A stretch of 64,000 nt of DNA from Lachnospiraceae bacterium (GTDB taxonomy: Bacteria; Bacillota; Clostridia; Lachnospirales; Lachnospiraceae), in contig VSOB01000005.1 in the NCBI GenBank assembly GCA_009774625.1, positions 10,061-74,060 on the forward strand, in the 5' to 3' direction. Below, piece after piece: positions 7,973 through 26,376 of the stretch. Position numbers and translations under genes: made by a program. Every line of letters starts with the position of its first letter. The stretch's first letter is position 1. The notes beneath the pieces were generated by a model, which was given only the letters and a program-made list of their open reading frames with translations, was not told the origin of the DNA and searched no databases.

Positions 7973-7975
7973 CAT

Positions 7976-10900: not shown

Positions 10901-12544
10901 ATTACGGAAGTGAATCCGTTAAGCCCTCATTACTACTGTACGAACTGTTATTACAATGATTTTACTTCTGACGAGGTGAAACAGTATGCGGGCCGGGCGG
11001 GCTGCGATATGCCGGATAAACTGTGTCCGGTATGCGGGAAACCGCTGAAAAAGGACGGTTTCGACATTCCCTTTGAGACATTCCTGGGCTTTAAGGGAGA
11101 TAAGGAGCCGGATATCGATCTGAATTTCTCCGGAGAGTATCAGAGCAAAGCCCATAAGTACACGGAGGTAATCTTCGGGGCAGGCCAGACCTATCGGGCA
11201 GGCACCATCGGCACGCTGGCGGACAAGACGGCATATGGATATGTGAAGCGGTATTATGAAGAGCGGGGTACACGGAAACGGAACTGTGAGATCAACCGGA
11301 TCGTTATGGGCTGCACCGGCATCCGGCGCAGCACGGGACAGCATCCGGGCGGCATTATTGTACTGCCTCTGGGAGAGGATATCAATTCCTTTACCCCGGT
11401 ACAGCATCCGGCGAATGATATGACCACAGATATCGTGACCACGCATTTTGACTATCATTCCATCGATCATAACCTGTTAAAGCTGGATATTCTGGGACAC
11501 GATGATCCTACCATGATCCGTATGCTTCAGGATCTGACCGGCATCGATCCGGTCAAAATTCCGCTGGACGACAAACAGGTCATGACACTGTTCCAGAGTA
11601 CAAAAGCTCTGGGGATTACACCGGATCAGATCGGGGGCTGCCGGCTGGGCTCTCTGGGGATACCTGAGTTCGGGACGGAATTTGCCATGCAGATGCTTCT
11701 GGATACAAAACCCACTTCGTTTTCCGACCTGGTGCGGATCGCCGGACTGGCCCACGGGACAGACGTATGGCTGGGAAATGCGCAGACACTGATAGAAGAA
11801 GGAAAAGCCACTATTTCCACGGCGATCTGTACCAGGGACGATATTATGGTGTATCTGATCGGGATGGGCGTGGAAAGCAGCCTTTCCTTTAAGATCATGG
11901 AATCGGTCAGAAAAGGGAAAGGTCTGCAGCCGGAGATGGAAGAGGCTATGGTGGAAGCGGGAGTGCCGGACTGGTATATCTGGTCCTGCAAGAAGATTAA
12001 GTACATGTTTCCCAAAGCCCATGCGGCAGCCTATGTGATGATGGCATGGCGGATCGCTTATTGTAAGATCAATTATCCTCTGGCGTATTATGCGGCTTAT
12101 TTCAGTATCCGGGCGTCGGCTTTTTCCTATGAGCTGATGTGCCAGGGGCAGGAACATCTGGAGCGTGTGATGGCAGATTACCGGCGCAGAAACGATACGC
12201 TCAGCAAGAAAGAGCAGGACTCCTACAAGGATATGAAGGTGGTGCAGGAAATGTATGTACGGGGGTTTACCTTTGTACCCATTGATATCTTTACAGCCAA
12301 TTCACGTTCGTTCCGGATTACCGAAGGGAAGCTGATGCCTTCCTTAAGCAGCATTGACGGACTGGGAGAGAAGGCGGCGGACGCCATTGTGGAGGCGGCA
12401 AAGGACGGCCCGTTTTTATCCAAAGAGGATTTCCGGGAGCGGACCAGAGTGTCCAAGACCGTAACAGATCTGATGGACAGCCTGCATCTTCTGGGGAATC
12501 TGCCGGAGTCCAATCAGATCAGTCTGTTTGATCTGGTAATCTGA
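7976..12544 (+). CDS. polC: DNA polymerase III alpha subunit, PolC type
   Basis: 1522 aa. PHP domain (HCHTKMSDMDG), inserted 3'-5' exonuclease (VVFDLETTG, HHRAVDDAEA), a Zn-finger-like CxxC pair and the polymerase core. There is an expanded low-complexity K/E/Q/G-rich linker at roughly aa 170-270. Confidence 0.97.
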   Translation: MAKQFLEVFPTLQIKEENKALLKRVQVERVTATKRRDFLRIYLSSDHLLTKDVIFGLERDIKKQLFPQADLVVRIYEKYTLSAQYNPRTLTEVYRDSILLELKEYSHMEYVMFKGAEISFPDEKNISLTVRDSVPAREKGPELVRILEKIYGERFGFSVFVELEYKETDQTDDGEEDRRIALQVAQIAARAAIEQGGRSESSHCAESGAVQQKDTVGQSGQAVKAAAEQTTEEKKEKPAQKREQEKKSGWGGRGKGDMGKRPLRRSDNPDVIYGRDFEEDAIRIDEVVGEMGEVVIRGMILQVDARELRNERTVLIFDVTDFTDTITIKLFVTNEQTAEMLGHLKKGSFIRLKGVTIIDKFDNELTLGSIAGIKKIPDFTAGRMDNSGKKRVELHCHTKMSDMDGVSEASDLIKRAYQWGHPAIAITDHGVVQSFPDANHVWEGLWKEEKARRKTAGEENPDPQDFFKVIYGMEAYLVDDLKEVVTNDCGQDLDGTYVVFDLETTGFSPVQNQIIEIGAVKVANGEIADRFSTFVNPGVPIPFRIEQLTGIRDEDVMDAPPIETALPEFLAFCRGCVLVAHNAAFDMSFVTENAGRQGLDCVFTSVDTVGIARLLLPGQAKHTLDAVAKKLGVSLENHHRAVDDAEATAEIFLKFLPMLQKEGVQKLADINVMCASSPDTVKRMPAYHAIMLARNDTGRVNLYTMVSESHLTYFSKRPRIPKSLFLKHREGILLGSACEAGELYRALLDGRSEQEIARIVNFYDYLEIQPVGNNAFMIDSERVENIHCEEDIRKINQKIVELGEQFHKPVAATCDVHFLDPGDEVYRRIIMACKGFGDADNQAPLYLRTTEEMLEEFAYLGSDKAYEVVVANTNLIAEQIETISPVRPDKCPPVIPDSDKTLTDICYKKAHEMYGDPLPSIVQERLEKELHSIISNGFAVMYIIAQKLVWKSVEDGYLVGSRGSVGSSFVATMSGITEVNPLSPHYYCTNCYYNDFTSDEVKQYAGRAGCDMPDKLCPVCGKPLKKDGFDIPFETFLGFKGDKEPDIDLNFSGEYQSKAHKYTEVIFGAGQTYRAGTIGTLADKTAYGYVKRYYEERGTRKRNCEINRIVMGCTGIRRSTGQHPGGIIVLPLGEDINSFTPVQHPANDMTTDIVTTHFDYHSIDHNLLKLDILGHDDPTMIRMLQDLTGIDPVKIPLDDKQVMTLFQSTKALGITPDQIGGCRLGSLGIPEFGTEFAMQMLLDTKPTSFSDLVRIAGLAHGTDVWLGNAQTLIEEGKATISTAICTRDDIMVYLIGMGVESSLSFKIMESVRKGKGLQPEMEEAMVEAGVPDWYIWSCKKIKYMFPKAHAAAYVMMAWRIAYCKINYPLAYYAAYFSIRASAFSYELMCQGQEHLERVMADYRRRNDTLSKKEQDSYKDMKVVQEMYVRGFTFVPIDIFTANSRSFRITEGKLMPSLSSIDGLGEKAADAIVEAAKDGPFLSKEDFRERTRVSKTVTDLMDSLHLLGNLPESNQISLFDLVI

Positions 12545-12571
12545 CAAAAAAATTTTAAAAATTTTGAAAAA

Positions 12572-12616
12572 AACACTTGCTTTTTCTGCAAAAGTATAAT
12601 AAGATAAGCAAGTGTT
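12572..12616. repeat. perfect 11-bp inverted repeat between polC and the tRNA, with a TATAAT hexamer in the loop
   Basis: AACACTTGCTT (12572-12582) is the exact reverse complement of AAGCAAGTGTT (12606-12616). The 23-nt loop contains TATAAT (12595-12600). An A-tract lies upstream and no T-tract lies downstream. Confidence 0.6.
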
Positions 12617-12622
12617 AAACAT

Positions 12623-12694
12623 GGCGTGTTGGTCAAGAGGTTAAGACGCCGCCCTCTCACGGCGGAATCAGGGGTTCGATTCCCCTACACGCTG
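12623..12694 (+). tRNA. tRNA-Glu, anticodon CUC
   Basis: A 72-nt cloverleaf folded by hand. Acceptor GGCGTGT/ACACGCT (G1-U72 wobble), D-arm GTC-AAGAGGTTAA-GAC, anticodon arm CCGCC-CTCTCAC-GGCGG, T-arm AGGGG-TTCGATT-CCCCT. It is almost colinear with the Bacillus tRNA-Glu scaffold. CCA is not encoded. Confidence 0.85.
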
Positions 12695-12727
12695 CGACTG
12701 TATGATACAGCCCAACCCGGAAAGAAT

Positions 12728-12772
12728 GTTGGAAACCTTGAATTTATGTGGTTTGCAACATTTTTTTATTTT
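12728..12772 (+). terminator. intrinsic terminator after tRNA-Glu
   Basis: GTTGGAAACC (12728-12737) pairs with GGTTTGCAAC (12750-12759), 9 of 10 bp, followed by ATTTTTTTATTTT. Confidence 0.6.
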
Positions 12773-12899
12773 GGGGAAAAGAAGTTTTTACAGAGTGGAA
12801 AGCGATCGACAATTCAACAGACCTTACACTTTGGCTGGCAGCTTTATTCTTTGCTTTTATCAATCTCTGCCAGATTCATACCAAGAGCGGTCAGGCTTT

Positions 12900-12945
12900 C
12901 TGAAAAGGCCTGAAAACCAGTGTTTTCAAGCCCTTTTCAGTTTTG
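12900..12945 (+). terminator. orphan terminator-like compound hairpin in a non-coding spacer
   Basis: Outer helix CTGAAAAGG/CCTTTTCAG stacks on inner helix TGAAAAC/GTTTTCA with loop CAGT, followed by TTTTG. No credible upstream ORF. Confidence 0.45.
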
Positions 12946-13007
12946 TACGGACAGGACAGGGAGGACGGGGCTGGTAACATTTTCTCCGTATAATTGTAGT
13001 GATATTA

Positions 13008-13037
13008 TTGACAATTTGGTCAGTAAAGTGTTATGTT
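13008..13037 (+). promoter_or_regulatory. candidate sigma-A promoter for the signalling operon
   Basis: TTGACA (13008-13013), 18-nt spacer, TG-extended TATGTT (13032-13037), about 50 nt upstream of ATG 13087. Confidence 0.45.
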
Positions 13038-13086
13038 AGTAGAGGGAAAAATTAAAAATGTATAAAGAAATGGTTCAGGAGAAGAG

Positions 13087-14178
13087 ATGAATAGACAGCA
13101 GATATTAATTGTTGACGATGAAGAGGTAAACAGAGAGATACTGAACGAAATGTTCAGAGATGCCAGAGAAGAATATGTGCTGCTTGAGGCAGCCAATGGG
13201 CAGGATGCGATTTTACAGATTGAAAGTCATAATAATATAGCATTGATTTTACTGGATGTGGTCATGCCTGTAATGGATGGTTTCAGTGTATTGGATTATA
13301 TGCATAAGAATAATTTGCTGCAGACCATACCGGTGATCCTGATTACCAGCGAGGATGAGCTGGATACAGACGATCAGGCATATTCCTATGGTGTGGCTGA
13401 TGTGATACATAAACCTTTTTATCCCCATATCGTAAAAAGAAGAAGCAAAAATATCATTGAGCTGTATCAGAGCAGGTTCAATATGGAGAGGCGTCTGCAG
13501 GAACAGGAGGCAGAGATCCGGGCGCAGGTAAAGGAGATTCGGGAAACCAACGAATTTATGATAGATGCGCTCAGTTCTGTGGTAGAGTTCAGAAGTGCGG
13601 AAACCGGTGAGCATACCAGGCGGATCAAGTATTTTACAAGGATTTTGCTGAAATACATGATGAAATATTTCCCCAAATATGGCCTGACATCCTCCAAGAT
13701 CGATATGATCGCAAGGGCGTCGGTTCTGCATGACATTGGCAAGATCGGTATTCCGGATGCGATATTGCTGAAGCCTGATAAACTGACAGAAGAAGAATTT
13801 GAGGTTATCAAAACCCATACGACGATCGGATGCAGCATACTGGAGAGATCTTATAAGAATCAGGCCAGTGAGTTCTATCGTTATTGTTATGAAATTTGCC
13901 GTCATCACCATGAGAGATGGGACGGAAACGGATATCCGGATCATCTGGAGGGAGATGCGATCCCGATCAGTGCACAGATCGTTGCCGTTGCGGATGTTTA
14001 CGATGCACTGGTTAGTCCGAGGGTATACAAGAAACCCTATGTAAATGATACTGCATATGATATGATTTTGAACGGTGAGTGCGGACAGTTTTCGCCGGAT
14101 GTACTTGAGTGCTTTGAACTTGCCAAGGAAGATTTTTTTAATATTGTGGAAGTTATTAAAATGTTTGAGTTCAAATAA
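13087..14178 (+). CDS. response regulator with an HD-GYP output domain (putative c-di-GMP phosphodiesterase)
   Basis: N-terminal REC (ILIVDDEE, LLDVVMP, KPF), a coiled linker, then intact HD-GYP motifs (EHTRRI, LHDIGKIGIPD, HHERWDGNGYP). Confidence 0.85.
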   Translation: MNRQQILIVDDEEVNREILNEMFRDAREEYVLLEAANGQDAILQIESHNNIALILLDVVMPVMDGFSVLDYMHKNNLLQTIPVILITSEDELDTDDQAYSYGVADVIHKPFYPHIVKRRSKNIIELYQSRFNMERRLQEQEAEIRAQVKEIRETNEFMIDALSSVVEFRSAETGEHTRRIKYFTRILLKYMMKYFPKYGLTSSKIDMIARASVLHDIGKIGIPDAILLKPDKLTEEEFEVIKTHTTIGCSILERSYKNQASEFYRYCYEICRHHHERWDGNGYPDHLEGDAIPISAQIVAVADVYDALVSPRVYKKPYVNDTAYDMILNGECGQFSPDVLECFELAKEDFFNIVEVIKMFEFK

Positions 14179-14256
14179 TCCCTTTGAAACAGATAACAGG
14201 CAGTGAAAAGTTCTTCATTTTTACTGCCCTTTTTTCTATGCTATGGGAGGAAGGCT

Positions 14257-15690
14257 ATGAATCAGAGGGAAGATTCCATATTCCCCATGGAAGAGGCGCT
14301 GGAAATGATGTTTGTGTTCGGTGCATCGGGGGAGATTTTATATGCGAATGCCGCAGCGAAAAAAAAGCTGGAATATGGAGACGAACTGTGCGGCAAATAT
14401 ATTTATGATGTGTTTCCCAATACATTTCAGGCCTCCGGAGGAGGCTTTCAGACAGAATATCCTTTTGGGCATACGCCCCGGAATCTGGTGGCATACCGCA
14501 GTAATCTGACATGCTTTCCGGTGGAGGCAAGGATTCTGTCTGTCAGGGAGGCAGAGGATCAGTACATATGTATGGCCAATGATATCCTGGAAAAAGAATT
14601 TCTCAGCCGTGAGGTGGAGCAGGTCAGGGAAGAAGCCAGGCAGGCGCTGAAGGTGAAATCAGAGTTTGTGGCCAATGTGACCCATGAGCTGCGTACACCG
14701 GTGAACGGTGTGCTGGGCAATGTCCGGGAACTGATGGACGATGTGACAGACGAACATACATTAAAGGCGCTGCGGCTGATTGAACGCTGCTGCGGCGATA
14801 TGAATAAGATTATTAATAATATTCTGGATTTTTCCAAGCTGGAAGCCGGGAAATTCACATTGGAACCCCGCAGATTCCATTTCAGGAATATGCTGGATTA
14901 TGTGAAATCTCACCATCTGAATAAGATCACCGAGAAGGGTCTGGGGTTTTTCATGACGGTGTCGCCGCAAGTGCCGGAATATATCATCGGAGATGAGCTG
15001 CGTATCGTACAGATACTGAATAATCTGCTGTCCAATGCGCTGAAATTTACTTCTGTAGGTAAAATCACCGTAGAGGTGATCAGGACCGCGCGGGTCAATG
15101 ACAGGATGGAGCTGTTTTTTATTGTCAAGGATACCGGAATCGGCGTGGATAAGGCGGATCGGGATAAACTGTTCCAGAGTTTTTCCCAGGTGGATGCGTC
15201 TATTTCCAGAAAATACGGGGGAACAGGCCTGGGGCTGAATATCTGCAAACAGCTTGTGGAGCTGATGGGCGGGACGATTGAGGTGGAGAGTGAGAAAAAT
15301 AAGGGCAGTACTTTTTCTTTCTCTATCTGGTCCGGAGTCTGTGAGGAAGATGAGACTACGCTGTCCCAGGACAACGATACAAAGGCTTCGCTGACGATGC
15401 ATGCATCGCCCGGCAGCGACGGGGAAGAAGAGGAAGTGAAAACCTACGGTACGCCGGAAAATCTCAGGACTCTGAAGCGGAATCTTTCCAAGTTGATTCT
15501 CTGCGTGGAAATGGAAAACTGGGAGAAGGCGGAGATGTTTATGGAAACCGTCCGGCAGTTGACGGAAGGGGCGCCGCGGGAGGTGAGCCGCAAGGCGCTC
15601 AGACTCAAAATGGCAATACAGAAAGAAAATTATGATAAAACGGCGGCAGAGTTTCATGAGCTGGAATCTCTGCTGGAAGTACAGCCATAA
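14257..15690 (+). CDS. cytoplasmic PAS-type sensor histidine kinase
   Basis: No TM segment. PAS-like N-terminus, H-box THELRTPVNG, N/G boxes (LLSNALKFT, DTGIGV, GGTGLGL). A ~110-aa helical C-terminal extension has unknown function. ATG 14257 follows GGGAGGAAGG. Confidence 0.85.
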   Translation: MNQREDSIFPMEEALEMMFVFGASGEILYANAAAKKKLEYGDELCGKYIYDVFPNTFQASGGGFQTEYPFGHTPRNLVAYRSNLTCFPVEARILSVREAEDQYICMANDILEKEFLSREVEQVREEARQALKVKSEFVANVTHELRTPVNGVLGNVRELMDDVTDEHTLKALRLIERCCGDMNKIINNILDFSKLEAGKFTLEPRRFHFRNMLDYVKSHHLNKITEKGLGFFMTVSPQVPEYIIGDELRIVQILNNLLSNALKFTSVGKITVEVIRTARVNDRMELFFIVKDTGIGVDKADRDKLFQSFSQVDASISRKYGGTGLGLNICKQLVELMGGTIEVESEKNKGSTFSFSIWSGVCEEDETTLSQDNDTKASLTMHASPGSDGEEEEVKTYGTPENLRTLKRNLSKLILCVEMENWEKAEMFMETVRQLTEGAPREVSRKALRLKMAIQKENYDKTAAEFHELESLLEVQP

Positions 15691-15714
15691 AGAACAAAAA
15701 AAGAAGGTGTGGAT

Positions 15715-16776
15715 ATGTTTAAGCGGGACAGGGGCCTGGGACAGGAAAAAATACTGATTGTGGATGATGTGGAGACAAACCGGCTGGTGCTGGAGGAGAT
15801 TATACAGAGTATGGGCTGTGTACCTGTTCTGGCGGAGAGCGGAGAGCAGGCGCTGGAGCTGGCGGCCTCGGAACACCCTCAGCTTGTGCTGACCGATATT
15901 TCCATGCCTGGCATGGACGGTTATGTGCTGTGCAGGACTTTAAAGGGAAAAGAGGAAACAAAAGATATTCCGGTTATCTTTATTTCGGCATATGATGATC
16001 CGATGGATATTGTGGAAGGACTTTCTCTGGGCGGGGAAGATTATATTACCAAGCCCTTTATTCCGGAAGTGGTGCAGGCGCGGGTCGGTGTACATCTGAG
16101 CCTGCATGTGGCAAAGCGGGATCTGATGGAGATGAACAGGAGGCTTCAGGTTTCTGTCAGTGAGCAGTTACATCAGATGGAGCAGGAGAAAAAGAGTATT
16201 CTGTACGCTCTGGCGGGGATCGCGGCAAAAAATTCTGCTTATGAAAAGGAGCATATGGAACGGCTGGGGAAAAACTGCAGGATTCTGGCGCAGGGGATGC
16301 AGCTTTCGCCTCTGTTTGAAGATAAGATTTCGGACACTTATGTGGATACGATAGAGTTGGCCGCACCGCTTTGCGACATCGGAAATATAGGGGTGCCGAT
16401 GGAGATTTTGCGGAAGCGGGAAGATCTGACACCGGAAGAGTCGGCGGAGATCAGGGCGCATACGGTCATCGGCGCGGGGCTTTTGCGGGATCTGCATGTC
16501 AGTAATGACTATAATGACTTTATCAGTACATCCATTGAAATTGCCCATTATCATCATGAAAACTATGACGGAAGCGGGTATCCGGAAGGGCTGGCAGGGA
16601 CGCGGATTCCGCTGGCGGCGCAGATCGTGTCCATTGCAGATGCATACTGCAGCTTAACCGGTGAGGGCGGTCTTGACGGGGAAGAAGCACTGGAGACTAT
16701 GAGCAGAGAAGCGGGCAGCAGTTTCAATCCGGATATTTTTACGATCTGCCGCAAGATATCGCGCCAGTTATGTTAA
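15715..16776 (+). CDS. response regulator with an HD-GYP-like output domain, HD dyad degenerate (CD)
   Basis: REC (ILIVDDVE, LTDISMPGMDG, KPF) followed by EHMERL...LCDIGNIGVP...HHENYDGSGYP. The HD position reads Cys-Asp. ATG 15715 is better spaced from aagaagg than GTG 15709. Confidence 0.85.
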   Translation: MFKRDRGLGQEKILIVDDVETNRLVLEEIIQSMGCVPVLAESGEQALELAASEHPQLVLTDISMPGMDGYVLCRTLKGKEETKDIPVIFISAYDDPMDIVEGLSLGGEDYITKPFIPEVVQARVGVHLSLHVAKRDLMEMNRRLQVSVSEQLHQMEQEKKSILYALAGIAAKNSAYEKEHMERLGKNCRILAQGMQLSPLFEDKISDTYVDTIELAAPLCDIGNIGVPMEILRKREDLTPEESAEIRAHTVIGAGLLRDLHVSNDYNDFISTSIEIAHYHHENYDGSGYPEGLAGTRIPLAAQIVSIADAYCSLTGEGGLDGEEALETMSREAGSSFNPDIFTICRKISRQLC

Positions 16777-16799
16777 AGTTTTGAGGGGAGGAGTATCAG

Positions 16800-17618
16800 T
16801 TGATTTCAGATGAGGAGTTTTTACGGATCGCGGCTTATATGAAGCAGCGATATGGCATTGACCTGCATCAGAAAAAGGTCATTATCAATGGCAGGCTGGA
16901 AAATCGTATTAAGGCGGAGGGCTTCCAGAGCTTTGATGCTTTTATGAATGCAGTGGAAAGAGACAAATCCGGCAGACTGGAGAAAATGCTGGTCAATGTA
17001 CTGACTACCAACCATACCTATTTTATGAGGGAATTTGAGCATTTTGAATATTTGAAAAATGTGGTGCTGCCCTGGCTGAAAAATAAGGAAAGTGCGAAGA
17101 AAGATCTGCGGATCTGGTGCGGCGCTGCCTCCTCCGGAGAGGAGCCTTATATGATCGCTATGGTTATGGATGATTTTTTCGGACTGGAGCGGGGGCAGTG
17201 GGATAAAAAACTGCTGGCCACGGATTTATCCACGAAGGTACTGCAGCAGGCAATTGCAGGCATTTATAATGCGGAACAGTTGAAGAATCTTCCGGAGCAG
17301 TGGAAAAGGCATTTTTTCAAGGCTTTGGGTACGGGACAGTATCAGGTGACGGAAGAACTGAAAAGGGAAGTGATATTCCGTCAGTTCAATCTTATGAATC
17401 CCTTTCCGTTCAAAAAGAAAATGCACACTGTTTTTTTGCGCAATGTTATGATATATTTTGATGAGAATACAAAGCGGGAGCTGGTGCAGAAGGTATACGA
17501 TGCGCTGGAGCCAGGCGGGTATTTTTTCATAGGGACGACTGAGACGCTGGATCGGAACAGTACGCCGTTTCAGATCATTCAACCGTCTATATTCAGAAAA
17601 AAGGAAGGGAATGGGTAA
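16800..17618 (+). CDS. cheR: chemotaxis protein methyltransferase
   Basis: CheR N-terminal helical domain plus a SAM-dependent methyltransferase fold (RIWCGAASSGEEPY, FLRNVMIYF). TTG start after GAGGGGAGGAG. Confidence 0.9.
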   Translation: MISDEEFLRIAAYMKQRYGIDLHQKKVIINGRLENRIKAEGFQSFDAFMNAVERDKSGRLEKMLVNVLTTNHTYFMREFEHFEYLKNVVLPWLKNKESAKKDLRIWCGAASSGEEPYMIAMVMDDFFGLERGQWDKKLLATDLSTKVLQQAIAGIYNAEQLKNLPEQWKRHFFKALGTGQYQVTEELKREVIFRQFNLMNPFPFKKKMHTVFLRNVMIYFDENTKRELVQKVYDALEPGGYFFIGTTETLDRNSTPFQIIQPSIFRKKEGNG

Positions 17619-17621
17619 TGT

Positions 17622-18656
17622 ATGCAGCCAATTAAAGTATTGATTGTAGAAGATTCCATTGTATTCCGGGAACTGCTGGTGCAGAATCTGAGCAGGGACC
17701 CGGCCATTCAGGTGGTAGGGACTGCCAGGGATCCTTTTGAAGCAAGGGATGCCATACTGGCAAAGAAACCGGATGTTATGACATTGGACGTGGAGCTGCC
17801 GAGGATGAGCGGGATAGAGTTTTTGAGGAAACTGATGCCCCAGTACCCGCTTCCGGTGGTGGTGATCAGCTCGCTGAGTGATAAGGTATTTGATGCACTG
17901 AACGCAGGCGCCGTGGACTTTGTAGCCAAACCGGCGGTATCCAGCAGGGCACAGTTAGAGGATTTTATCCGGAATGAACTGTTGGTGAAGATCAAGATCG
18001 CTTCCACAGCCAAGATCAGCAATATCAAACGAAAGGTGATGGAGCAGGAGCAGCACGGACAGCGGCTCTCCACAAAGCGCAACAATCTGCTTGTGGCAAT
18101 CGGTGCGTCCACAGGAGGCACCGAAGCGATTTTTGCGGTTGCCAAAGAGTATGGAACGGACATTCCGGGCATCGTGGTGGTGCAGCATATGCCGCCCGGC
18201 TTTACTTCCATGTATGCCAAAAGGCTGAATGACCAGTGCCGGATACAGGTCAAGGAGGCACAGACCGGGGATCGGGTCCTGCCGGGCCATATGCTGATTG
18301 CACCGGGAGGGGATCAGCATATGCGGCTTGTAAAGGTAAACGGCGGTTATCAGGTGGAGTGTAAAAGAGGGCCCAGGGTCAATGGACACTGTCCGTCGGT
18401 GGATGTGCTGTTTGAATCAGTGGCCAAAAACGCCGGGGCCGATGCCGTGGGAATCATTCTCACCGGTATGGGGGGCGACGGGGCCAAAGGGCTGCTGGCG
18501 ATGAGAAAAGCCGGCGCCAGAACCATCGGTCAGGATGAATCCACCTGCGTGGTCTATGGTATGCCAAAGGTAGCCTATGATCTGGGCGCGGTGGAGTATC
18601 AGGAAAAATTGACACAGATCGCAGGAAGAACCTATGCGTTGTTGAATAAAATGTAA
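17622..18656 (+). CDS. cheB: protein-glutamate methylesterase/glutaminase
   Basis: REC (VLIVEDS, LDVELP) plus the methylesterase catalytic domain (IGASTGGTEA, VVQHMP, LTGMGGDG). Confidence 0.92.
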   Translation: MQPIKVLIVEDSIVFRELLVQNLSRDPAIQVVGTARDPFEARDAILAKKPDVMTLDVELPRMSGIEFLRKLMPQYPLPVVVISSLSDKVFDALNAGAVDFVAKPAVSSRAQLEDFIRNELLVKIKIASTAKISNIKRKVMEQEQHGQRLSTKRNNLLVAIGASTGGTEAIFAVAKEYGTDIPGIVVVQHMPPGFTSMYAKRLNDQCRIQVKEAQTGDRVLPGHMLIAPGGDQHMRLVKVNGGYQVECKRGPRVNGHCPSVDVLFESVAKNAGADAVGIILTGMGGDGAKGLLAMRKAGARTIGQDESTCVVYGMPKVAYDLGAVEYQEKLTQIAGRTYALLNKM

Positions 18657-18668
18657 AGGAGAGAGGAC

Positions 18669-19061
18669 ATGAAGATTTTATTGGCAGAAGATGATTTTGC
18701 GACAAGGAAGTTTATGGTGAATTTCCTGTCAAAGTATGGCGAATGTGATGCAACTGTGGACGGTATGGAAGCGGTGGACGCATTTATGATGGCTTTGGAG
18801 GATGAGGAACCGTATGATCTGGTATGTCTTGATATTATGATGCCGGTTATGGACGGGTATCAGGCGCTTATGGGGATCCGGAATCTGGAAAAGGACCGGA
18901 ACATTCCTGAGGATCAGGCGGTGAAAGTGATTATGACAACGGCGCTGAATGAGGAAAGAAATGTAAAAATGGCGTTTGAACTGGGCTGTACGATCTATTC
19001 CGGTAAGCCGATTGATCAGGGGCGGTTTGAGCAGGCGCTGAAAAAACTGGGCCTGATCTGA
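18669..19061 (+). CDS. cheY: single-domain CheY-like response regulator
   Basis: 130-aa REC only (LLAEDD, CLDIMMPVMDG, MTTA, GKP). Its position between cheB and cheA fits CheY. Confidence 0.8.
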   Translation: MKILLAEDDFATRKFMVNFLSKYGECDATVDGMEAVDAFMMALEDEEPYDLVCLDIMMPVMDGYQALMGIRNLEKDRNIPEDQAVKVIMTTALNEERNVKMAFELGCTIYSGKPIDQGRFEQALKKLGLI

Positions 19062-19103
19062 GACAAAAGAACATAGATTGGAATATGCAGGAAAGGAGAA
19101 TGT

Positions 19104-21272
19104 ATGGCTGAGGAATTTAGTACGGAAGGCATGCTTGACATGTATCTGTTTGAAAACGAACAGCTTCTGGAGCAGCTTCAGGAGATGGTTCTGGAACAGA
19201 AGGATGCGGAATGCTTTGACGAGGACAGCATCAATGAAATATTCAGAACCATGCATACCATCAAAGGCTCATCCGGTATCATGATGTTCGACAATATAAC
19301 GGCGATATCGCATAAGCTGGAGGATGTATTTTATTATTTGAGAGAATCTCATCCGGAAAATGTACCCCATGTGGATCTGGTGGCGCATGTACTGCGGGTG
19401 GAGGATTTTATCTCCAATGAGATGGAAAAGATCCGGGGAGGCGATTCGCCGGACGGAGATCCGGGAGAGATCATAGCGGATCTGGACCGTTTTCTGGAGC
19501 AGCTTAAAAGTGGCGGAGAAGAAAAGGGTGCGGAGCCGCCGCCGGAGAATGTCTATGTGGCGCCGAAACAGTTTTATATAGCGCCGGTTGCCACCAGTGC
19601 CAGCCGCTTTTACAAAATATATATTCACTTTTTCCCGGAAACAGAGATGGCAAATGTGCATGCTTACAAAGCGGTGTACGCTCTGAAGGAAGTGGCGGAA
19701 GATCTTTTGTATTCCCCGGAGGATATTATCTCGGATGCTGAAAGCGCTGCCGCTATTCTGAAGGATGGTTTCCGGATTCTGTTGCAGGCCCAGTGCAGTG
19801 AAGAAGAAGTGCGCAAGATTATCGGCGTGGGCTATGATATTGAAAAGGTGGATGTTTTTGAGTGCAGGGCAGAGGAGTTTCTGCAGGGCTTTGATTTCGG
19901 AGAAAACGATGATCTGTTGCAGATTGATCTGGACTCCAGTGTGGAGGACATCGAGGCGCGGATCGAGGATGCTTCTGCAGAAGAAAGTGTTCAGCCGGCA
20001 AAATCAAAACCCGCGAAGCCGGCCATAGCGCCTGGTGATTTTGTCATAAAATCCAGGGAACCCGGCAAACAGAAAAAGCTGGCTAAGGATAAGCCGAAAG
20101 GAGAGAAAGCCTCCTTTATCGGCGTGAATGTGAGCAAAATGGATCAGTTGATGGAGCTGATCGGAGAGCTGGTAATTTCGGAGTCGGTTGTACTACAGAA
20201 TCCGGATCTGAAGGTGCCGGGCTTAAACCTTGACAATTTTAACAAAGCAGCGGCACAGCTTTCCAAGATTTCCACAGATTTGCAGAATGTGATTATGTCC
20301 ATGCGCATGGTGCCGTTAACCAATACGTTCCAGAAGATGAACCGAATCGTATTTGACGTTTCCCGGAAGCTGGGCAAAGACATCGAATTTGTAATGGTGG
20401 GAGAACAGACCGAGGTAGATAAGAATATCATTGAGCATATTTCGGATCCGCTGATGCATCTGGTGAGAAATGCGGTGGACCATGGAATAGAAACCAATGA
20501 AGAGCGTATAGAAAGCGGCAAGCCGGATAAGGGTAAAGTGACGCTTTCTGCCAGGACAGAGGCCGGTAAGGTATGGATCAGTGTAGAGGACAACGGTCAG
20601 GGACTTGACAGAAATAAGATATTGGAAAAAGCCAGAAAGCAGGGACTGCTTGAGGAAGGCAAGCCGGACAGTTCTTACTCCGATAAGGAAGTGTATCAGT
20701 TTATTACTTATCCGGGCTTTTCCACCAATGAACAGATTACCGAGTATTCGGGCCGGGGCGTGGGTATGGATGTGGTGGTGCAGAACATACAGGCAATCGG
20801 CGGTACACTGGATATAGAAAGTACGCCGGGCTTTGGCAGCATTATGAGCCTGAAGATTCCGCTGACCCTTGCCATTATCGACGGCATTGTGATGGAAACC
20901 GGAAACTCCTCCTTTGTGATGGAAACAGGTATGATCAAGGAGTTTGTCCGTGTAAAGGAAGATATGATGATTCATGAACCTGACGGAGAGGAATACATCA
21001 TGATACGCGGCGAATGTTACCCGGTATTGCGTCTGGGCAGATGGTACGGCCTGACACAGTATCAGGAGTCCGTAGAGGACGGGGTTATGCTGATTCTGGA
21101 GGTAGAGGATAAGAGGGTATGTCTGTTGGTGGATAAACTGATTGGAGAACAGGAGATCGTAGTCAAACCGATTCCCTCTTATATCAAAAAGGTCAAAGGT
21201 CTGTCCGGCTGTACGCAGCTTGGCGACGGCAGTATCGCGCTGATTTTGGATGCAGGCGGGCTGATCGAATAA
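19104..21272 (+). CDS. cheA: chemotaxis histidine kinase CheA
   Basis: P1 Hpt (FRTMHTIKGSSG), a dimerisation segment, HATPase (HLVRNAVDHGIE, DNGQGLD, GRGVGMDVV) and a C-terminal CheW-like P5 domain. Confidence 0.93.
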   Translation: MAEEFSTEGMLDMYLFENEQLLEQLQEMVLEQKDAECFDEDSINEIFRTMHTIKGSSGIMMFDNITAISHKLEDVFYYLRESHPENVPHVDLVAHVLRVEDFISNEMEKIRGGDSPDGDPGEIIADLDRFLEQLKSGGEEKGAEPPPENVYVAPKQFYIAPVATSASRFYKIYIHFFPETEMANVHAYKAVYALKEVAEDLLYSPEDIISDAESAAAILKDGFRILLQAQCSEEEVRKIIGVGYDIEKVDVFECRAEEFLQGFDFGENDDLLQIDLDSSVEDIEARIEDASAEESVQPAKSKPAKPAIAPGDFVIKSREPGKQKKLAKDKPKGEKASFIGVNVSKMDQLMELIGELVISESVVLQNPDLKVPGLNLDNFNKAAAQLSKISTDLQNVIMSMRMVPLTNTFQKMNRIVFDVSRKLGKDIEFVMVGEQTEVDKNIIEHISDPLMHLVRNAVDHGIETNEERIESGKPDKGKVTLSARTEAGKVWISVEDNGQGLDRNKILEKARKQGLLEEGKPDSSYSDKEVYQFITYPGFSTNEQITEYSGRGVGMDVVVQNIQAIGGTLDIESTPGFGSIMSLKIPLTLAIIDGIVMETGNSSFVMETGMIKEFVRVKEDMMIHEPDGEEYIMIRGECYPVLRLGRWYGLTQYQESVEDGVMLILEVEDKRVCLLVDKLIGEQEIVVKPIPSYIKKVKGLSGCTQLGDGSIALILDAGGLIE

Positions 21273-21297
21273 AATAGCAGAAAGGAACAGGAAACAT

Positions 21298-21834
21298 ATG
21301 AGTGAAATGAGCGAATTGAAGAGACAGGAAGAGGCCGCTTCAAATGAGCATGATACGCAAAAGGGTAAGTATATGACCTTTAAATCCGGAAACGAGTATT
21401 TCGGGCTGGAGATTCAGTATGTCAATGAGATCATTCAGTTTCAGACGATTACGGCCATACCGGAGACAGAGGATTATATCAAGGGCCTGATCAACCTGAG
21501 AGGAAAGGTGATCCCGGTAGTGGATGTACGCCTGCGTTTCAAACAGGAACCCTTTGAGTACAATGACAGGACCTGTATTATTGTAATCAATGTGAAATCC
21601 ATGATGGTGGGGCTGATTGTGGAGAAAATTGCCGAAGTGGTGGAAATCAAGGAAGAGAACATACTGCCTCCGCCCAACATTGGCCGCGCCGATAAATCCC
21701 ATCACAAATATGTGTATGGAATCGGTAAGGTTGGCAATGCGGTGAAACTTTTGCTGGATCCGGATAAGTTGCTGAATGATGATGACCTGTCGGTTATGGA
21801 ACAGGCCAATGATATGATATTAGAAGAAGAATGA
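21298..21834 (+). CDS. cheW: chemotaxis coupling protein CheW
   Basis: A single CheW-like domain ([35 protein letters not shown]) with a ~25-aa N-terminal extension. Confidence 0.88.
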
Positions 21835-21847
21835 GGGGGAGAAACAC

Positions 21848-23206
21848 ATGAAAAACTTGAAAATGAAAACAAAATTAATTTTGGGCTTTCTGGTGCCGAT
21901 TGCGATCACCGTGATCAATATCCTGATCAGTAATCTGACCACCAAATGGGCCGCTTCTATTAAAGATCATACAGAACGGGATATCTTTACCAACGTTGCC
22001 GCAGTTGCAACAATTGTTTTTGCCGCCATTTCTGTATTGGTTACCATATTGATCGCACTGGCACTGATTAAAACCATTGAAAAGTCGGTGAAGCAGCTTT
22101 CTGATGCCGCAAAAGAAATCGCTATGGGCCGCGTGGATATTAACCTGGTTAAGTACAATAACGACGAATTTGGCGAACTGGTGGATGAATACAACAATGT
22201 GATTGAAAATATCAAGTATCAGGCCGAGATCGCAGAGGCGGTATCCAACGGGAACCTGACAGTACAGGTAAATCCCAAATCTTCGGATGACCTGCTGGGC
22301 AATTCGTTAAAGAAACTGGTGGAAGATAACTTAAATGCGCTGACCAATATCAGCGACGCAGGATCTCAGGTAACGGTCAGCTCCTCTCAGGTGGCAAGTG
22401 CAAGCCAGGCGCTGGCACAGGGTTCCACACAGCAGGCAAGTGCCATTGAAGAGATTACAGCATCCATTGACGAGATTGCAGAAAAGACAAAACAGAACGC
22501 AGAAGAAGCCAACCAGGCCGCCGGACTGGTGGCACAGGCTATTTCGGATGTACAGCAGGGGAATGGCCAGATGCAGAATATGATGGTGGCAATGCAGAGC
22601 ATCAACAAATCATCAGAAAGCATTTCCAAGATTATCAAAGTGATTGATGATATTGCATTCCAGACCAACATTCTGGCGCTGAATGCAGCAGTGGAAGCTG
22701 CAAGGGCAGGGGAAGCCGGAAAAGGGTTTGCGGTAGTGGCAGAGGAAGTCAGAAGTCTGGCAGCAAAGAGCGCTTCTGCAGCAGCAGAGACGGCGGAGCT
22801 GATTGAGGATTCCATTGAGAAGGTCAACGCAGGCACCAAGATTGCGGATGAAACCGTAAAATCTATGGAAGCGATTACAAAGAGAGTACAGGACAGCGAA
22901 ATGATTATCAATGGCATCGCAGAATCTTCCAATTATCAGGCGACTGCGGTGGCACAGATTGAGCAGGCGATCACGCAGGTATCCCAGGTAGTACAGACCA
23001 ATTCCGCTACCAGCCAGCAGTGTGCGGCAGCCAGTGAAGAACTGTCCAATCAGGCGTCCAGAATGCGTGAAATGCTTGCCATCTATAATCTGGGAGCAGG
23101 CAATTCCTATTCTTCCTCTCTTAAGAGTGATTCCTATTCCTACTCTTCAGCATCCAATGTAAATGAACAGGTGATATCTCTGGGAGATGATTTTGGAAAA
23201 TACTGA
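21848..23206 (+). CDS. methyl-accepting chemotaxis protein with a minimal extracytoplasmic loop
   Basis: Two TM helices separated by only ~25 aa, HAMP, and the conserved signalling hairpin ([37 protein letters not shown]). A Ser-rich tail ends in DDFGKY. Confidence 0.92.
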
Positions 23207-23220
23207 AGCAGATAAATCAT

Positions 23221-23250
23221 GACACAGGGACGAAAGCCCTGTGTCTTTTA
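23221..23250 (+). terminator. intrinsic terminator after the MCP gene
   Basis: GACACAGGG (23221-23229) and CCCTGTGTC (23237-23245) form a perfect 9-bp stem with a 7-nt loop, followed by TTTTA. Confidence 0.7.
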
Positions 23251-23323
23251 TGTGTATATGCAGGGAAGTTTTGGAAATTTTTCCTGTATGATAGCAAGAA
23301 AGGAAAAAGGAGAGTGATTGCAA

Positions 23324-23677
23324 ATGGCTTTATTTGAGGAATTAAAAGCTCTGGGTGTGGATGTAGACGGAGGGCTGAAACGGATCAATAACAATGAGAA
23401 ACTTTATACAAGACTGCTGGGTTCTTTTGTCAAGTCGATTGAATCTCAGTATGTGCAGCCGGATTTTGATGCTGCCGAGTGCGAAGGGGCAATTGAAAAG
23501 GCCCATGCTATCAAGGGAACGGCAGGTAATCTGTCTATTACGCCGGTATATGAAGCCTACACCGAAGTGGTGAATCTGCTCCGGAAAGGACAGATCGAAG
23601 AGGCCAGACCGATTCTGACCAGGATACTTCCCATCCAGAATGAGATTGCCGCCTGCATCAAAAGTCATATGGCATAA
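23324..23677 (+). CDS. stand-alone Hpt phosphotransfer protein
   Basis: 117 aa, helical, with the Hpt signature EKAHAIKGTAGNLSI. ATG 23324 follows AAAGGAGAG. Confidence 0.75.
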   Translation: MALFEELKALGVDVDGGLKRINNNEKLYTRLLGSFVKSIESQYVQPDFDAAECEGAIEKAHAIKGTAGNLSITPVYEAYTEVVNLLRKGQIEEARPILTRILPIQNEIAACIKSHMA

Positions 23678-23714
23678 AGTTACTGCATAATGCTGACACA
23701 TTGGAGCGAAAAGA

Positions 23715-26255
23715 ATGAATAAAAGGATAAACAATTTTTTCAGGAGCAGTGTTGTGGCTGTTGTGGCTGTGTGTGTGGTAGTATTTATTTTTCTGACTTC
23801 TTTTATGACCCATCAGACCAAGCGGACGGTTATGGAAATCAGCGACAAATACATGGCTGAGATGAGCAGACAGATTAAACAGAAGTTTGAGGCGATTATT
23901 ATGCTGCGGCTGAGTCAGGTGGAAGGCATGATAATGCGTACTCCTCCGGAAGAGGCAGAATATGGCGCCGAAATGCTGGAAGAGTTGATGATGAGTGCCG
24001 AGATCCGGAACTTTTCCTGGCTGGGACTGTATGACAGGGACGGCAAGATCGAAAAGATTTATGGTGAGGAGATTGAGATCGTCAATGACGGAGATATGCT
24101 GAGTTCCCTTGAAGAGGATGGTATGCTGGTAGAAGAGGGAAAAACTTCTGAAGGAGAAAAACTGCTACTTCTGGGAGCAAAGGCGGCTTATCCTATGGGG
24201 AACGGCAACACCAGTGCGGCGCTGGTTGCCGGACTTCCGATGGATTATCTGGGTATGGTACTGTTTCTGAATGAAAATGATGCGATGGTGTATTCGCATA
24301 TCATAGACGGCGAAGGGAATTTTGTAGTCCGGAGTGCGGATGCGTTCCGGGAGAACTATTTTACCCGGATGCGGGAACAGTTTGAGGTGTTCGAAGGCAA
24401 AGAAGCAGAGGAATATGTCAGTGAGTTGCAGGAGGCTATATCGAACCGCAGTGTGTATTCTACAATGGTTTCCATGGAGGGAGAGCAGTTGCATCTGTAT
24501 TGTCTGCCACTTTCGGAAAACACTTCCTGGTATCTGATCTCTGCCCTGCCCAACGGATATATGGAAGAGTCTGTTTCCAGGCTGGACAGCATGCGTACCC
24601 TGGTGATGGTATGTTCTGTGGGAATGATCCTGCTGGTGATGTCGGTGATTTTTGTGATCTATTACCGGCTGTCCAAACAGCAGATCAGAGATCTGGACCA
24701 GGCTATGGGAGAAGCAGTGCATGCCAATATGGCTAAGAGTGAATTTCTCTCCAGTATGAGTCATGATATCCGGTCTCCGATGAATGCTATTATCGGTATG
24801 ACGGAGATTGCCCAGAGAAATATTGACGATAAAGCCAGGGTGAAGGACTGTCTGCACAAAGTGTCGCTGTCCAGCAAGCATCTGCTGGGGCTGATCAACG
24901 ATGTGCTGGATATGTCCAAGATTGAAAGCGGAAAGATGACCCTGAATGAGGTGCCCATGTCTCTCAGGGAAGTGATGGATGATATTGTCAACATCATACT
25001 GCCTCAGGTCAAAGCCAGGGCACAGCAGTTTGATATTTATATTCAGAAAATCATGACGGAGAATGTATACTGCGATACTGTGCGTCTGAATCAGGTACTG
25101 ATCAATCTGCTTACCAATGCGGTCAAGTTTACGCCGGAAGGCGGCCGGGTGGATGTGCATGTATTCCAGGAAGCCTCTCCTTTAGGGGAGGAATATATCC
25201 GAAACCATTTTGAGGTGGAGGATACGGGTATCGGTATGTCGGAGGACTTTCAGAAAAAGATATGGGATACCTTTTCCAGAGAAGAAACTGATGAGGTGCG
25301 GCATATTGTGGGAGCCGGCCTGGGTACTTCCATTACGAAAAAAATCATTGAACTGATGGGCGGCAACATTGAACTGAAAAGTAAACTCGGAAAGGGCAGC
25401 ACCTTCCATGTGACGCTTGACCTGAGAAAAGCGGATGCCAGCGAAATGGAGATGAGACTGCCCGAATGGAATATTCTGGTGGTGGATGATAATGAATGGC
25501 TGTGCCTGAGTGCGGTTTCTAATCTGGAGGAACTGGGAGTTCATGCGGAGTGGACGCTGGATGGCCGGGATGCCGTCAGGATAATTGAAGAGCGCCATAA
25601 CAAAGGAGAGGACTACCGGTTTGTGCTGGTAGACTGGAAGATGCCCAATATGGACGGCATTGAAACCATCCGGGAAATCCGTAAACGGGTGGGCAGAAGT
25701 GTTTCTATTTTCCTGATTTCGGCCTATGACTGGAATGAACTGGGAGAGGATGTGGCGCCGGAGATCGAAGGCTTTATTTCCAAACCGCTCTTTAAATCCA
25801 CATTGTACGAGTGGCTGAAGCAGTATACGGAAGGATATGATGCACAGTCGGAGGAAAAAGAGGAGGAGGTGGACTTCACAGGGAAGCACATTCTTCTGGC
25901 AGAAGATATGGACATTAACTGGGAAGTGGCTTATGAGATCCTTTCCATTACCGGAATGGTGCTGGATCGGGCCGAAAACGGACAGATCTGCGTGGATATG
26001 TTCCAGAAGTCCGAGGTGGGCTACTATGATGCCATTTTGATGGATCTGCGTATGCCTGTAATGAACGGATACGACGCCACAAAGGCGATCCGCGCACTGG
26101 GGCGTCCGGATAATAATCTGCCGATCATAGCGATGACCGCAGATGCCTTTTCGGACGATGCAGAGCATTGTCTGCAGTGTGGCATGAATGCCCACATTCC
26201 CAAGCCGCTGGACATCGGTGAATGCATGAGGGTACTGCAGAAGTTCCTGGGCTGA
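23715..26255 (+). CDS. hybrid sensor histidine kinase (large extracytoplasmic sensor, HisKA, HATPase, two REC domains)
   Basis: TM1, a ~260-aa extracytoplasmic Cache-like region and TM2. H-box SHDIRSPMNAI, HATPase (LTNAVKFTP, DTGIGM, GAGLGT). Then two receivers (ILVVDD...VDWKMPNMDG and ILLAEDM...MDLRMPVMNG...KP). Confidence 0.9.
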   Translation: MNKRINNFFRSSVVAVVAVCVVVFIFLTSFMTHQTKRTVMEISDKYMAEMSRQIKQKFEAIIMLRLSQVEGMIMRTPPEEAEYGAEMLEELMMSAEIRNFSWLGLYDRDGKIEKIYGEEIEIVNDGDMLSSLEEDGMLVEEGKTSEGEKLLLLGAKAAYPMGNGNTSAALVAGLPMDYLGMVLFLNENDAMVYSHIIDGEGNFVVRSADAFRENYFTRMREQFEVFEGKEAEEYVSELQEAISNRSVYSTMVSMEGEQLHLYCLPLSENTSWYLISALPNGYMEESVSRLDSMRTLVMVCSVGMILLVMSVIFVIYYRLSKQQIRDLDQAMGEAVHANMAKSEFLSSMSHDIRSPMNAIIGMTEIAQRNIDDKARVKDCLHKVSLSSKHLLGLINDVLDMSKIESGKMTLNEVPMSLREVMDDIVNIILPQVKARAQQFDIYIQKIMTENVYCDTVRLNQVLINLLTNAVKFTPEGGRVDVHVFQEASPLGEEYIRNHFEVEDTGIGMSEDFQKKIWDTFSREETDEVRHIVGAGLGTSITKKIIELMGGNIELKSKLGKGSTFHVTLDLRKADASEMEMRLPEWNILVVDDNEWLCLSAVSNLEELGVHAEWTLDGRDAVRIIEERHNKGEDYRFVLVDWKMPNMDGIETIREIRKRVGRSVSIFLISAYDWNELGEDVAPEIEGFISKPLFKSTLYEWLKQYTEGYDAQSEEKEEEVDFTGKHILLAEDMDINWEVAYEILSITGMVLDRAENGQICVDMFQKSEVGYYDAILMDLRMPVMNGYDATKAIRALGRPDNNLPIIAMTADAFSDDAEHCLQCGMNAHIPKPLDIGECMRVLQKFLG

Positions 26256-26276
26256 TCCGGGAGATTCTGGGAAGTC

Positions 26277-26305: not shown

Positions 26306-26327
26306 GAAACAGAATCAAGGGAAGAAC

Positions 26328-26360: not shown

Positions 26361-26376
26361 TAAAGAGGAGGTTTTT

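Follow-up and report, generated by a model that had tools for sequence, protein, structure and literature searches.

Chemosensory (Che) pathways with outputs other than motility are few, and most of them are proteobacterial. Here we describe a Che gene cassette from a Firmicute, found at positions 13008-23250 of a 64,000-nucleotide (nt) stretch of DNA from a Lachnospiraceae bacterium of the mouse gut (contig VSOB01000005.1; hereafter the window, in whose numbering nucleotide positions are given unless a contig is named). In this cassette, a complete set of Che genes is accompanied by a soluble PAS histidine kinase (G2) and by two proteins in which a receiver (REC) domain is joined to an HD-GYP domain (G1) or to an HD-GYP-like one (G3). 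We propose, with somewhat less than even confidence, that it forms part of a Lachnospiraceae-wide island of two juxtaposed modules, in which an adapting array with a 36H receptor, the PAS kinase and a degenerate regulator would be coupled to a phosphodiesterase fed by a putative histidine phosphotransfer (HPt) protein, with cyclic di-GMP (c-di-GMP) as the probable substrate. What we have before us is a genuine, conserved and uncharacterised node of Che, two-component and c-di-GMP signalling, whose components and design elements are of known kinds.

Among the systems described so far, the ancestral (stage 1-2) F7 systems of gamma-proteobacteria, namely Che2 of P. aeruginosa, cluster III of V. 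cholerae and Che1 of S. oneidensis, have arrays whose role is still an acknowledged open question (PMC7184735). Like them, the cassette encodes a poly-HAMP 36H receptor that lacks a periplasmic sensor, together with a CheY-type REC protein of its own, CheR and CheB but no CheZ, and it shares with them the presence of another receptor class in the genome and of extra signalling genes inside the cluster. Unlike them, it resides in a Firmicute, follows the order cheR-cheB-REC-cheA-cheW-mcp and lacks CheD, the PAS-heme receptor and the STAS/PP2C partner-switch genes, carrying the PAS kinase and HD-GYP-type receivers instead. Wsp of Pseudomonas, which belongs to the ACF class, also combines a complete Che set and methylation-based adaptation with a REC protein that bears a domain of the c-di-GMP-turnover type. 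However, Wsp acts through a REC-GGDEF synthase, to which a CheA-REC hybrid passes phosphate, whereas the cassette CheA has a P2 domain and no REC, and the domains linked to it are HD-GYP domains (one of them degenerate) that appear to have separate kinases, the PAS kinase for one and a hybrid kinase with an HPt for the other.

Parallels for the kinase and its HD-GYP-type partners come from other loci. For instance, the H-NOX network of Shewanella and Vibrio (HnoK, HnoB and HnoD) likewise unites a soluble kinase, an active REC-phosphodiesterase (the REC-EAL protein HnoB) and a REC-degenerate HD-GYP protein, HnoD, which is inactive and inhibits a phosphodiesterase (bioRxiv 10.1101/2021.11.05.467447). 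In contrast to that network, the cassette has no H-NOX or NosP sensor, its putatively active enzyme is of the HD-GYP rather than the EAL type, and the module lies inside a putative Che operon. In P. aeruginosa, PA2572, a REC-YN-GYP protein, has no phosphodiesterase activity, and its REC domain binds the cytoplasmic part of the receptor PA2573 (PMC3411652). There too, genes for a histidine kinase (PA2571), a REC-degenerate HD-GYP protein and a chemoreceptor (the methyl-accepting chemotaxis protein, or MCP, PA2573) stand side by side, but PA2573 is an orphan receptor with no CheA, CheW, CheR or CheB in its locus, PA2571-PA2573 are separate transcription units, and the locus has neither a second, active HD-GYP protein nor an HPt.

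Two further sets of Che clusters are worth comparing. A sister family found across the Clostridia (for example in Mobilitalea, Desulfosporosinus and Ruminiclostridium) has the order cheY-cheA-cheW-mcp-cheR-(cheB)-(cheD), with a multi-PAS hybrid kinase and a single REC. Its CheA is 51% identical to that of the cassette, its 36H receptor likewise ends in ...EFGKY, and it too holds a PAS-containing histidine kinase inside the Che cluster; its kinase, however, is a large hybrid with a REC of its own, its receptor has a 4HB sensor domain, its gene order differs and it has no HD-GYP protein. In Geobacter, every group-alpha che cluster includes an HD-superfamily protein whose role is unknown (PMC2577667), but this protein is stand-alone, with no REC or GYP motif reported, and both the phylum and the Che class differ. 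In our literature searches on HD-GYP proteins in connection with che genes, Lachnospiraceae and Clostridia, we found no description of an arrangement like the present one.

Layout and conservation of the cassette

The interval 13008-23250 holds nine genes, all on the + strand and in the same direction, rather than the ten counted in the original prediction. The order and domains that it gave do agree with Pfam, which we used to call domains; promoter and terminator candidates come from a pattern scan. The features of the locus are as follows.

13008-13037, + strand: sigma-70-like promoter candidate before G1 (TTGACA, 18 nt, TG-n-TATGTT)
13087-14178, + strand: G1, REC-HD-GYP protein (Pfam Response_reg and HD_5/HD)
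14199-14228, + strand: terminator-like hairpin with T-run in the gap between G1 and G2 (pattern scan)
14257-15690, + strand: G2, soluble PAS-HisKA-HATPase kinase (Pfam HisKA, HATPase_c, weak PAS)
15709/15715-16776, + strand: G3, REC-HD-GYP-like protein (Pfam Response_reg and HD_5/HD)
16800-17618, + strand: CheR methyltransferase (Pfam CheR_N and CheR, E 2e-55)
17622-18656, + strand: CheB methylesterase, REC and CheB_methylest (Pfam, E 7e-62)
18669-19061, + strand: single-domain REC in the 'CheY' position (Pfam Response_reg only, 58.9 bits)
19104-21272, + strand: CheA with five domains, P1 (Hpt), P2, P3, P4 and P5 (Pfam)
21298-21834, + strand: CheW coupling protein (Pfam CheW, E 2e-36)
21848-23206, + strand: MCP (Pfam MCP signalling domain, HAMP1 match)
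23221-23245, + strand: terminator-like hairpin 3' of the MCP gene (stem of nine pairs, 6 of them G-C, then TTTTAT)
23318-23677, + strand: putative stand-alone HPt of 119 aa, beyond the interval (Pfam Hpt, below cut-off)
23715-26255, + strand: membrane hybrid histidine kinase of Cache type (Pfam weak dCache, HisKA, HATPase and two REC stretches)

The eight gaps between the nine genes measure, in order, 78, 24, 23, 3, 12, 42, 25 and 13 nt and fit the range of 3-78 nt given before. Three features were absent from the original prediction, namely the HPt gene, the hybrid kinase gene and the hairpin at 14199-14228. The interval contains four REC domains; the six that had been announced are reached only when the two REC stretches of the hybrid kinase, outside the interval, are counted as well.

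Relatives of this CheA occur in at least 543 species. With one genome per species, we compared the best 79 of these loci, which all belong to Lachnospiraceae and have CheA proteins 80-94% identical, and which include the whole cassette of the cultured Acetatifactor muris DSM 23669. Although several of the 79 loci end at contig ends, G1 is present in 65 of them, G2 in 71, G3 in 72, CheR in 74 and CheB in 76, with a range of 74-77 for the genes from CheR to the MCP. An identical CheA is also found, in the same gene order, on many mouse-gut metagenome contigs. Only three loci have the polC/rimP context seen in the window, while elsewhere the flanks are unrelated (for example, LacI or glycogen phosphorylase). 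Since the order from G1 to the MCP is kept in about 70 species in spite of these unrelated flanks, the cassette behaves as a unit and the adjacency of its genes is not due to chance, so the question of the original prediction, whether the neighbourhood recurs in other genomes, can be answered in the affirmative.

About seven close species lack G1 but have G2 and G3, and G1 is missing from distant relatives as well. The next CheA lineage, about 60% identical, was reached by a homologue search and contig look-ups and comprises Anaerosporobacter faecicola, Petralouisia muris and one further lineage. It has an eight-gene core without G1, that is, the PAS kinase, a REC-HD-GYP(-like) protein, CheR, CheB, REC, CheA, CheW and MCP. 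A metagenome scan with a representative of this CheA (P0121) returned one irrelevant match of 28% only.

The HD-GYP proteins and their probable kinases

HD-GYP domains are the chief c-di-GMP hydrolases of clostridia, and both G1 and G3 match the NosR-family REC-HD-GYP model, with scores below the cut-off of the model. The two proteins nevertheless differ in the residues that can be read from alignments to PmGH (4MCW) and PA4781 (4R8Z). G1 keeps all metal ligands (the equivalents of E185, H189, HD, H250, HHE and D305) together with GYP, K and RxYK, its catalytic and substrate positions are invariant across 66 orthologues, and the phospho-acceptor residues of its REC domain (D/D/D/T/K) are conserved. 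G1 is thus a probable c-di-GMP phosphodiesterase; it also matches V-cGAP3 (5Z7C), and cGAMP may be a substrate.

In G3, compared with 4MCW, E185 is replaced by Y, H221 by C and K225 by N, YDAL reads YCSL, and RxYK is gone. These changes are far from sporadic, as 62-71 of 73 orthologues carry them as well (C in 71, N in 66 and Y in 65); the H189 position is H in 41 and Y in 25, that of D305 is variable, and H250, HHE and GYP are invariant. The REC acceptor residues (D/D/D/S/K) are conserved too. G3 therefore lacks the full set of metal ligands and substrate residues of the RpfG-family REC-HD-GYP phosphodiesterases, which G1 has, and shows instead the conserved degeneracy and phosphorylatable REC of degenerate REC-HD-GYP regulators such as HnoD and PA2572, although the degenerate residues themselves are not the same (CD and YC in G3, SE and QLE in HnoD). 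The HD-GYP protein of the distant cassettes is an orthologue of G3, with 40% identity to G3 and 30% to G1, and there HD is kept while each protein lacks a different ligand (D305 changed to G, HHE to RYA, or D305 to C). As judged from these alignments, enzymatic function in the Che-linked HD-GYP lineage has been compromised time and again while selection persists, a pattern typical of regulatory or interaction domains, and G3 is probably a non-catalytic regulator rather than an enzyme. Given that G3, the sole HD-GYP protein constantly linked to the Che genes, lacks several metal ligands, a control of c-di-GMP degradation does not follow for the core system.

The most obvious partner of G3 is G2. 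The kinase core of G2 is closest to BarA/TorS/LuxQ-type kinases, with its H-box and its N, G1, F and G2 kinase motifs conserved, and the G2 and G3 genes are invariably neighbours, with a median gap of 14 nt in the species loci, an adjacency that has the usual layout of a cognate kinase/regulator pair. The 89 C-terminal residues of G2 (15421-15687; LSKLILCVEMENWEKAEMFMET...LRLKMA.QKENY) are among its most conserved parts and are predicted to form a four-helix bundle (pLDDT 89). In a fold search with this tail, HPt proteins were among the top matches, none of them significant (best E 0.09), and the bundles of PsbQ and cytochrome c' scored equally; a conserved His such as the phospho-His of an HPt was not found among the orthologues. 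We tentatively regard the predicted fold as HPt-like, and the tail is perhaps a pseudo-HPt docking domain.

G1, on the other hand, seems to belong elsewhere. The putative stand-alone HPt scores 22.2 bits against the Pfam Hpt cut-off of 24.6 (E 1.7e-4), and its counterpart in Anaerosporobacter faecicola scores 21.5 bits; the H, K, G, G and N of its motif AHAIKGTAGNL are invariant in 36 orthologues. The hybrid kinase has TorS/BarA-like matches in NCBIfam. Where at least 3.3 kb of flank is available to the left and to the right of the cassette, which is so in 54 species loci, the HPt gene adjoins the cassette in 47 and the hybrid kinase, on either side, in 20. The presence of G1 and of the HPt gene is correlated, with both in 46 loci, G1 only in four, the HPt only in one and neither in three (Fisher p = 0.005). 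In loci L088 and L089, for instance, the gene order is hybrid kinase, HPt, G1, G2 and so on to the MCP, so that in species other than that of the window a contiguous hybrid kinase-HPt-G1 block sits upstream of a conserved hairpin.

That hairpin, of the type GGCAGYRAAAA...TTTTTRCTGCC followed by a T-run, lies at 14199-14228 in the window, directly 3' of the G1 stop codon, and 46 of the 65 species loci with G1 have an equivalent after it, with variable loops. As only about 25 nt are left to the start codon of G2, the genes from G2 to the MCP must be transcribed either through the hairpin or from a start inside G1, and the hairpin is possibly an attenuator or a boundary between modules. The original prediction of one promoter-to-terminator unit is consequently not secure: it agrees with the promoter-like site at 13008-13037, which is the top + strand site of a consensus scan (10/12 with an extended -10) but a pattern match only, and with the hairpin at 23221-23245, while the hairpin at 14199-14228 splits G1 from G2. 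Because G1 is clade-specific, stands behind its own conserved hairpin and co-varies with the HPt, its phosphodonor would be sought in the hybrid-kinase phosphorelay rather than in CheA, and G1 probably belongs to that relay. More generally, two modules with different kinases can hide in what looks like one 'operon'.

Four mouse-gut runs labelled as metatranscriptomes contain the cassette. In runs X3, X4 and X6, the depth is a flat ~60x over genes and intergenic DNA alike (window 12400-28600), on contigs of 70-110 kb; these runs behave like DNA libraries and are not to serve as evidence of expression. X10 is the only run of uneven depth, with 7-36 across the cassette and about 1 in the flanks.

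Receptor class, proposed mechanism and alternatives

As had been predicted, the MCP has almost no extracytoplasmic domain, with only ~12-20 residues between its two hydrophobic membrane segments. Its residues 194-415 align gap-free to E. coli Tsr (1QU7; E 1e-43), whereas there is a 21-residue length difference from the 44H T. maritima receptor TM1143, which together place it in the 36H class. At the positions equivalent to the methylation sites of Tsr, the gap-free alignment shows that the MCP retains the pairs QQ/EE/DE/QQ. It has two HAMP domains, HAMP1 by Pfam and a second one at residues 129-170, which align to the HAMP of 3ZX6. Its C-terminus consists of a variable Ser-rich linker and an invariant ...NEQVISLGD[DG]FGKY, a motif shared by more than 70 of 77 orthologues and by distant clusters; a [DE]FGKY ending is in fact common to the cassette receptors (window 23092-23206) and to the distant Mobilitalea 36H receptor (contig L091, 12679-14355). 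This ending is a candidate for a clostridial counterpart of the NWETF-type pentapeptide that tethers CheR and CheB. With CheR and CheB present and both the methylation pairs and the tether-like ending kept, the methylation-based adaptation of the original prediction is plausible.

The 36H receptors are a class specific to F7 systems (PMC9321776). In the core of the system, the Hpt, dimerisation, HATPase and CheW-like domains of CheA, the CheW protein and the MCP domain all score above the curated Pfam cut-offs. The P3-P5 part of CheA scores 329 bits against E. coli CheA and 302 bits against T. maritima CheA, values that are similar and thus uninformative as to class. The 36H receptor, a CheA with P2 and a dedicated single REC make the cassette look F7-like and not Wsp/ACF-like; in agreement with this, the window contains no GGDEF gene and CheA is not a CheA-REC hybrid, the combination that marks ACF/Wsp systems. 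No protein of the cassette is more conserved than the single REC, with 83-98% identity between species. Its sequence has the acidic pocket, acceptor Asp, Thr and Lys of a receiver; in the PDB, it is matched best not by CheY but by Sln1-type REC domains from hybrid kinases. In one metagenome strain (contig L002, 7753-8515), cheR is called as two open reading frames (ORFs) of 105 and 155 aa in an otherwise identical cassette, which we ascribe to a frameshift or an assembly error.

A second receptor class is present as well. Contig L097, 99.7% identical to window positions 1-10815, extends further upstream to a dCache-HAMP receptor (4868-6946, 692 aa) located ~3 kb upstream of frr. This receptor has no FGKY tail, and its signalling domain finds its best match in the 44H T. 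maritima receptor and is not gap-free against the 36H domain. The presence of 36H and 44H-like receptors in one species hints at a second chemosensory system, which, as this one receptor suggests, could serve flagellar taxis and would leave the 36H cassette as an accessory system.

Our data directly establish which genes are present, the state of their motifs, the class of the receptor, conservation and co-occurrence, and from them we infer the following phosphotransfer routes and activities. The ancient core, or module B (14257-23206), would consist of the PAS kinase, the eroded REC-HD-GYP-like G3 and the complete Che set with its sensor-less di-HAMP 36H receptor. Module A, an apparent addition in the Acetatifactor-like clade, would comprise G1 (13087-14178) and the HPt with the Cache-type hybrid kinase (23318-26255); that the two modules lie next to each other is a conserved trait in its own right. 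In module B, the array of receptor, CheW and CheA, adapted by CheR and CheB, would report a membrane or cytoplasmic cue, and CheA would phosphorylate the single REC and CheB. G2 would phosphorylate its neighbour G3, which, with no c-di-GMP hydrolysis of its own, may act through protein contacts on G1, on the receptor array or on both, in the manner of HnoD and PA2572. In module A, the hybrid kinase would switch G1 through the HPt, and G1 would lower c-di-GMP. The island might thereby integrate several inputs into c-di-GMP turnover and a REC output, with no simple line from CheA to a phosphodiesterase.

The switch between flagella, pili and biofilm is under the control of c-di-GMP in Firmicutes. 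The cassette offers a tractable case in which to study how this messenger is regulated, as it keeps a PAS kinase and HD-GYP-type receivers in constant company with a complete Che set, its hosts are gut commensals from an abundant family, and one of them, Acetatifactor muris DSM 23669, is in culture. It could teach us how adaptation-capable arrays plug into second-messenger control in Firmicutes, and what role degenerate HD-GYP receivers have.

Other explanations have to be weighed against this proposal. The genes might simply be independent neighbours: an F7-type Che pathway for flagellar taxis with a motor-binding REC, next to the separate circuits G2-G3 and hybrid kinase/HPt-G1, all kept adjacent only because low c-di-GMP and chemotaxis proteins both suit a motile lifestyle. 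This is unlikely in our view, but it is the alternative that we take most seriously, since CheA has a P2 domain, the conserved Lys of the single REC is preceded, three positions earlier, by an aromatic switch residue, and each HD-GYP receiver has a cognate-looking kinase partner; moreover, many mouse-gut Lachnospiraceae have flagella, and 36H receptors and F7 systems drive flagella in enterics and in Arcobacter. Nevertheless, the linkage of the core survives both rearrangement and divergence to 60% CheA identity, which is tighter than usual co-regulation, the cluster has just one receptor and that one without a sensor domain, and the single REC is nearer to phosphorelay receivers than to CheY. 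In addition, none of six annotated contexts has flagellar genes beside the cassette, and taxis may be the task of another system, to judge from the 44H-like receptor of the same species.

The original prediction took a more direct route, in which CheA phosphorylates both REC-HD-GYP proteins as enzymatic c-di-GMP-degrading outputs, in a mirror image of Wsp, and the PAS kinase is a second input. Part of it stands, as the Che, PAS-kinase and HD-GYP genes do have a conserved adjacency with strong synteny, the HD-GYP receivers are the sole enzymatic output domains in the cassette, G1 is catalytically intact, and Che pathways with REC-enzyme outputs are known, as Wsp exemplifies. However, the only HD-GYP protein universally linked to the Che genes, G3, has lost several metal ligands and RxYK, while G1 is a clade-specific addition that lies behind the conserved terminator hairpin and tracks the HPt; both receivers have more obvious kinase partners, and CheA differs from the CheA-REC hybrids that Wsp-type systems typically have. 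The link from Che to c-di-GMP breakdown is thus less direct than had been proposed, and we consider direct phosphorylation of both receivers by CheA to be quite improbable.

CheA could also act on c-di-GMP through a relay. Such a relay would run from CheA to the single REC, then to the HPt and finally to G1 (perhaps also to G3), with the Cache-type hybrid kinase feeding the HPt in parallel. The single REC most resembles Sln1-type receivers, which exchange phosphate with an HPt, the HPt histidine is invariant, and the HPt gene is adjacent in 47 of 54 loci as against 20 of 54 for the hybrid kinase, so that in the majority of species no free REC donors lie nearby except those of the cassette itself. 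Even so, hybrid kinases may be encoded elsewhere in those genomes, and the distant core cassettes have the single REC but no adjacent HPt; we hold the route to be very improbable in this form. A related version, an adapting Che pathway without a motor output in which the CheA, single REC, HPt and REC-HD-GYP relay sets c-di-GMP hydrolysis and G3 and the PAS kinase, with its HPt-like tail devoid of a conserved His, act as modulators, strikes us as rather improbable. If such a relay did exist, it would give the first known case of c-di-GMP degradation driven by a Che pathway, and it could supply a function for the F7-like sensor-less 36H arrays, unexplained in proteobacteria.

Several points weigh against the two-module proposal that we prefer. 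The links of CheA, the PAS kinase or the HPt to any particular receiver are all inferred from sequence, and the single REC may be no more than a CheY that binds the motor in the usual way. The Cys that replaces the HD histidine in G3 could bind metal, and G3 might then keep an altered activity. The co-occurrence of G1 and the HPt comes from related species and from only four loci without G1, and Anaerosporobacter faecicola has an HPt and a hybrid kinase without G1. Furthermore, we saw no diguanylate cyclase or c-di-GMP effector in the window or the annotated flanks, and the metatranscriptome contigs that might have spoken for co-transcription are uninformative or DNA-like.

Remainder of the window

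The surroundings of the island are devoted to housekeeping and cell division, with frr, uppS, cdsA, dxr, rseP, ispG and polC on one side and rimP, nusA, infB ... ftsZ, spoIIGA and sigE on the other. Among the ORFs of at least 150 aa in the window, there is no flagellar gene, no cheC, cheD, cheV, cheX or cheZ or further che gene, as had been predicted, and no GGDEF or EAL gene. An Rfam scan of the window found tRNA only and no c-di-GMP riboswitch; a tRNA-Glu (CTC) lies at 12623-12695, between polC and the island. The island (the Che cassette, the HPt, the hybrid kinase and a ZorAB-like pair) is found between polC/tRNA and rimP only here and in three close relatives, which suggests that it was inserted or rearranged at this site.

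The ZorAB-like pair follows the hybrid kinase at 26341-28393 and consists of a short ZorA-like protein (388 aa) and a ZorB-like protein (PADLOC ZorB1, 227 bits), with rimP and then nusA next. We considered this MotA/MotB-like pair as a part of the Che system and rejected it, as it is ZorAB-like and occurs in three close species only. A Zorya system is not encoded at 26341-28393 either, as there is no ZorC, ZorD or ZorE and rimP directly follows; the pair may be an orphan stator-like unit in a Gram-positive host. Two other signalling pairs lie further away. A PP2C phosphatase and a Ser/Thr protein kinase are encoded at 4756-6870, between rseP and ispG, in the otherwise conserved block from frr to polC. 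The other, at 38962-40967, is an Agr-like two-component pair of a LytTR response regulator with a GHKL (HATPase_c_5) kinase, after which come a glyoxalase-family protein and an NlpC/P60-SH3 hydrolase.

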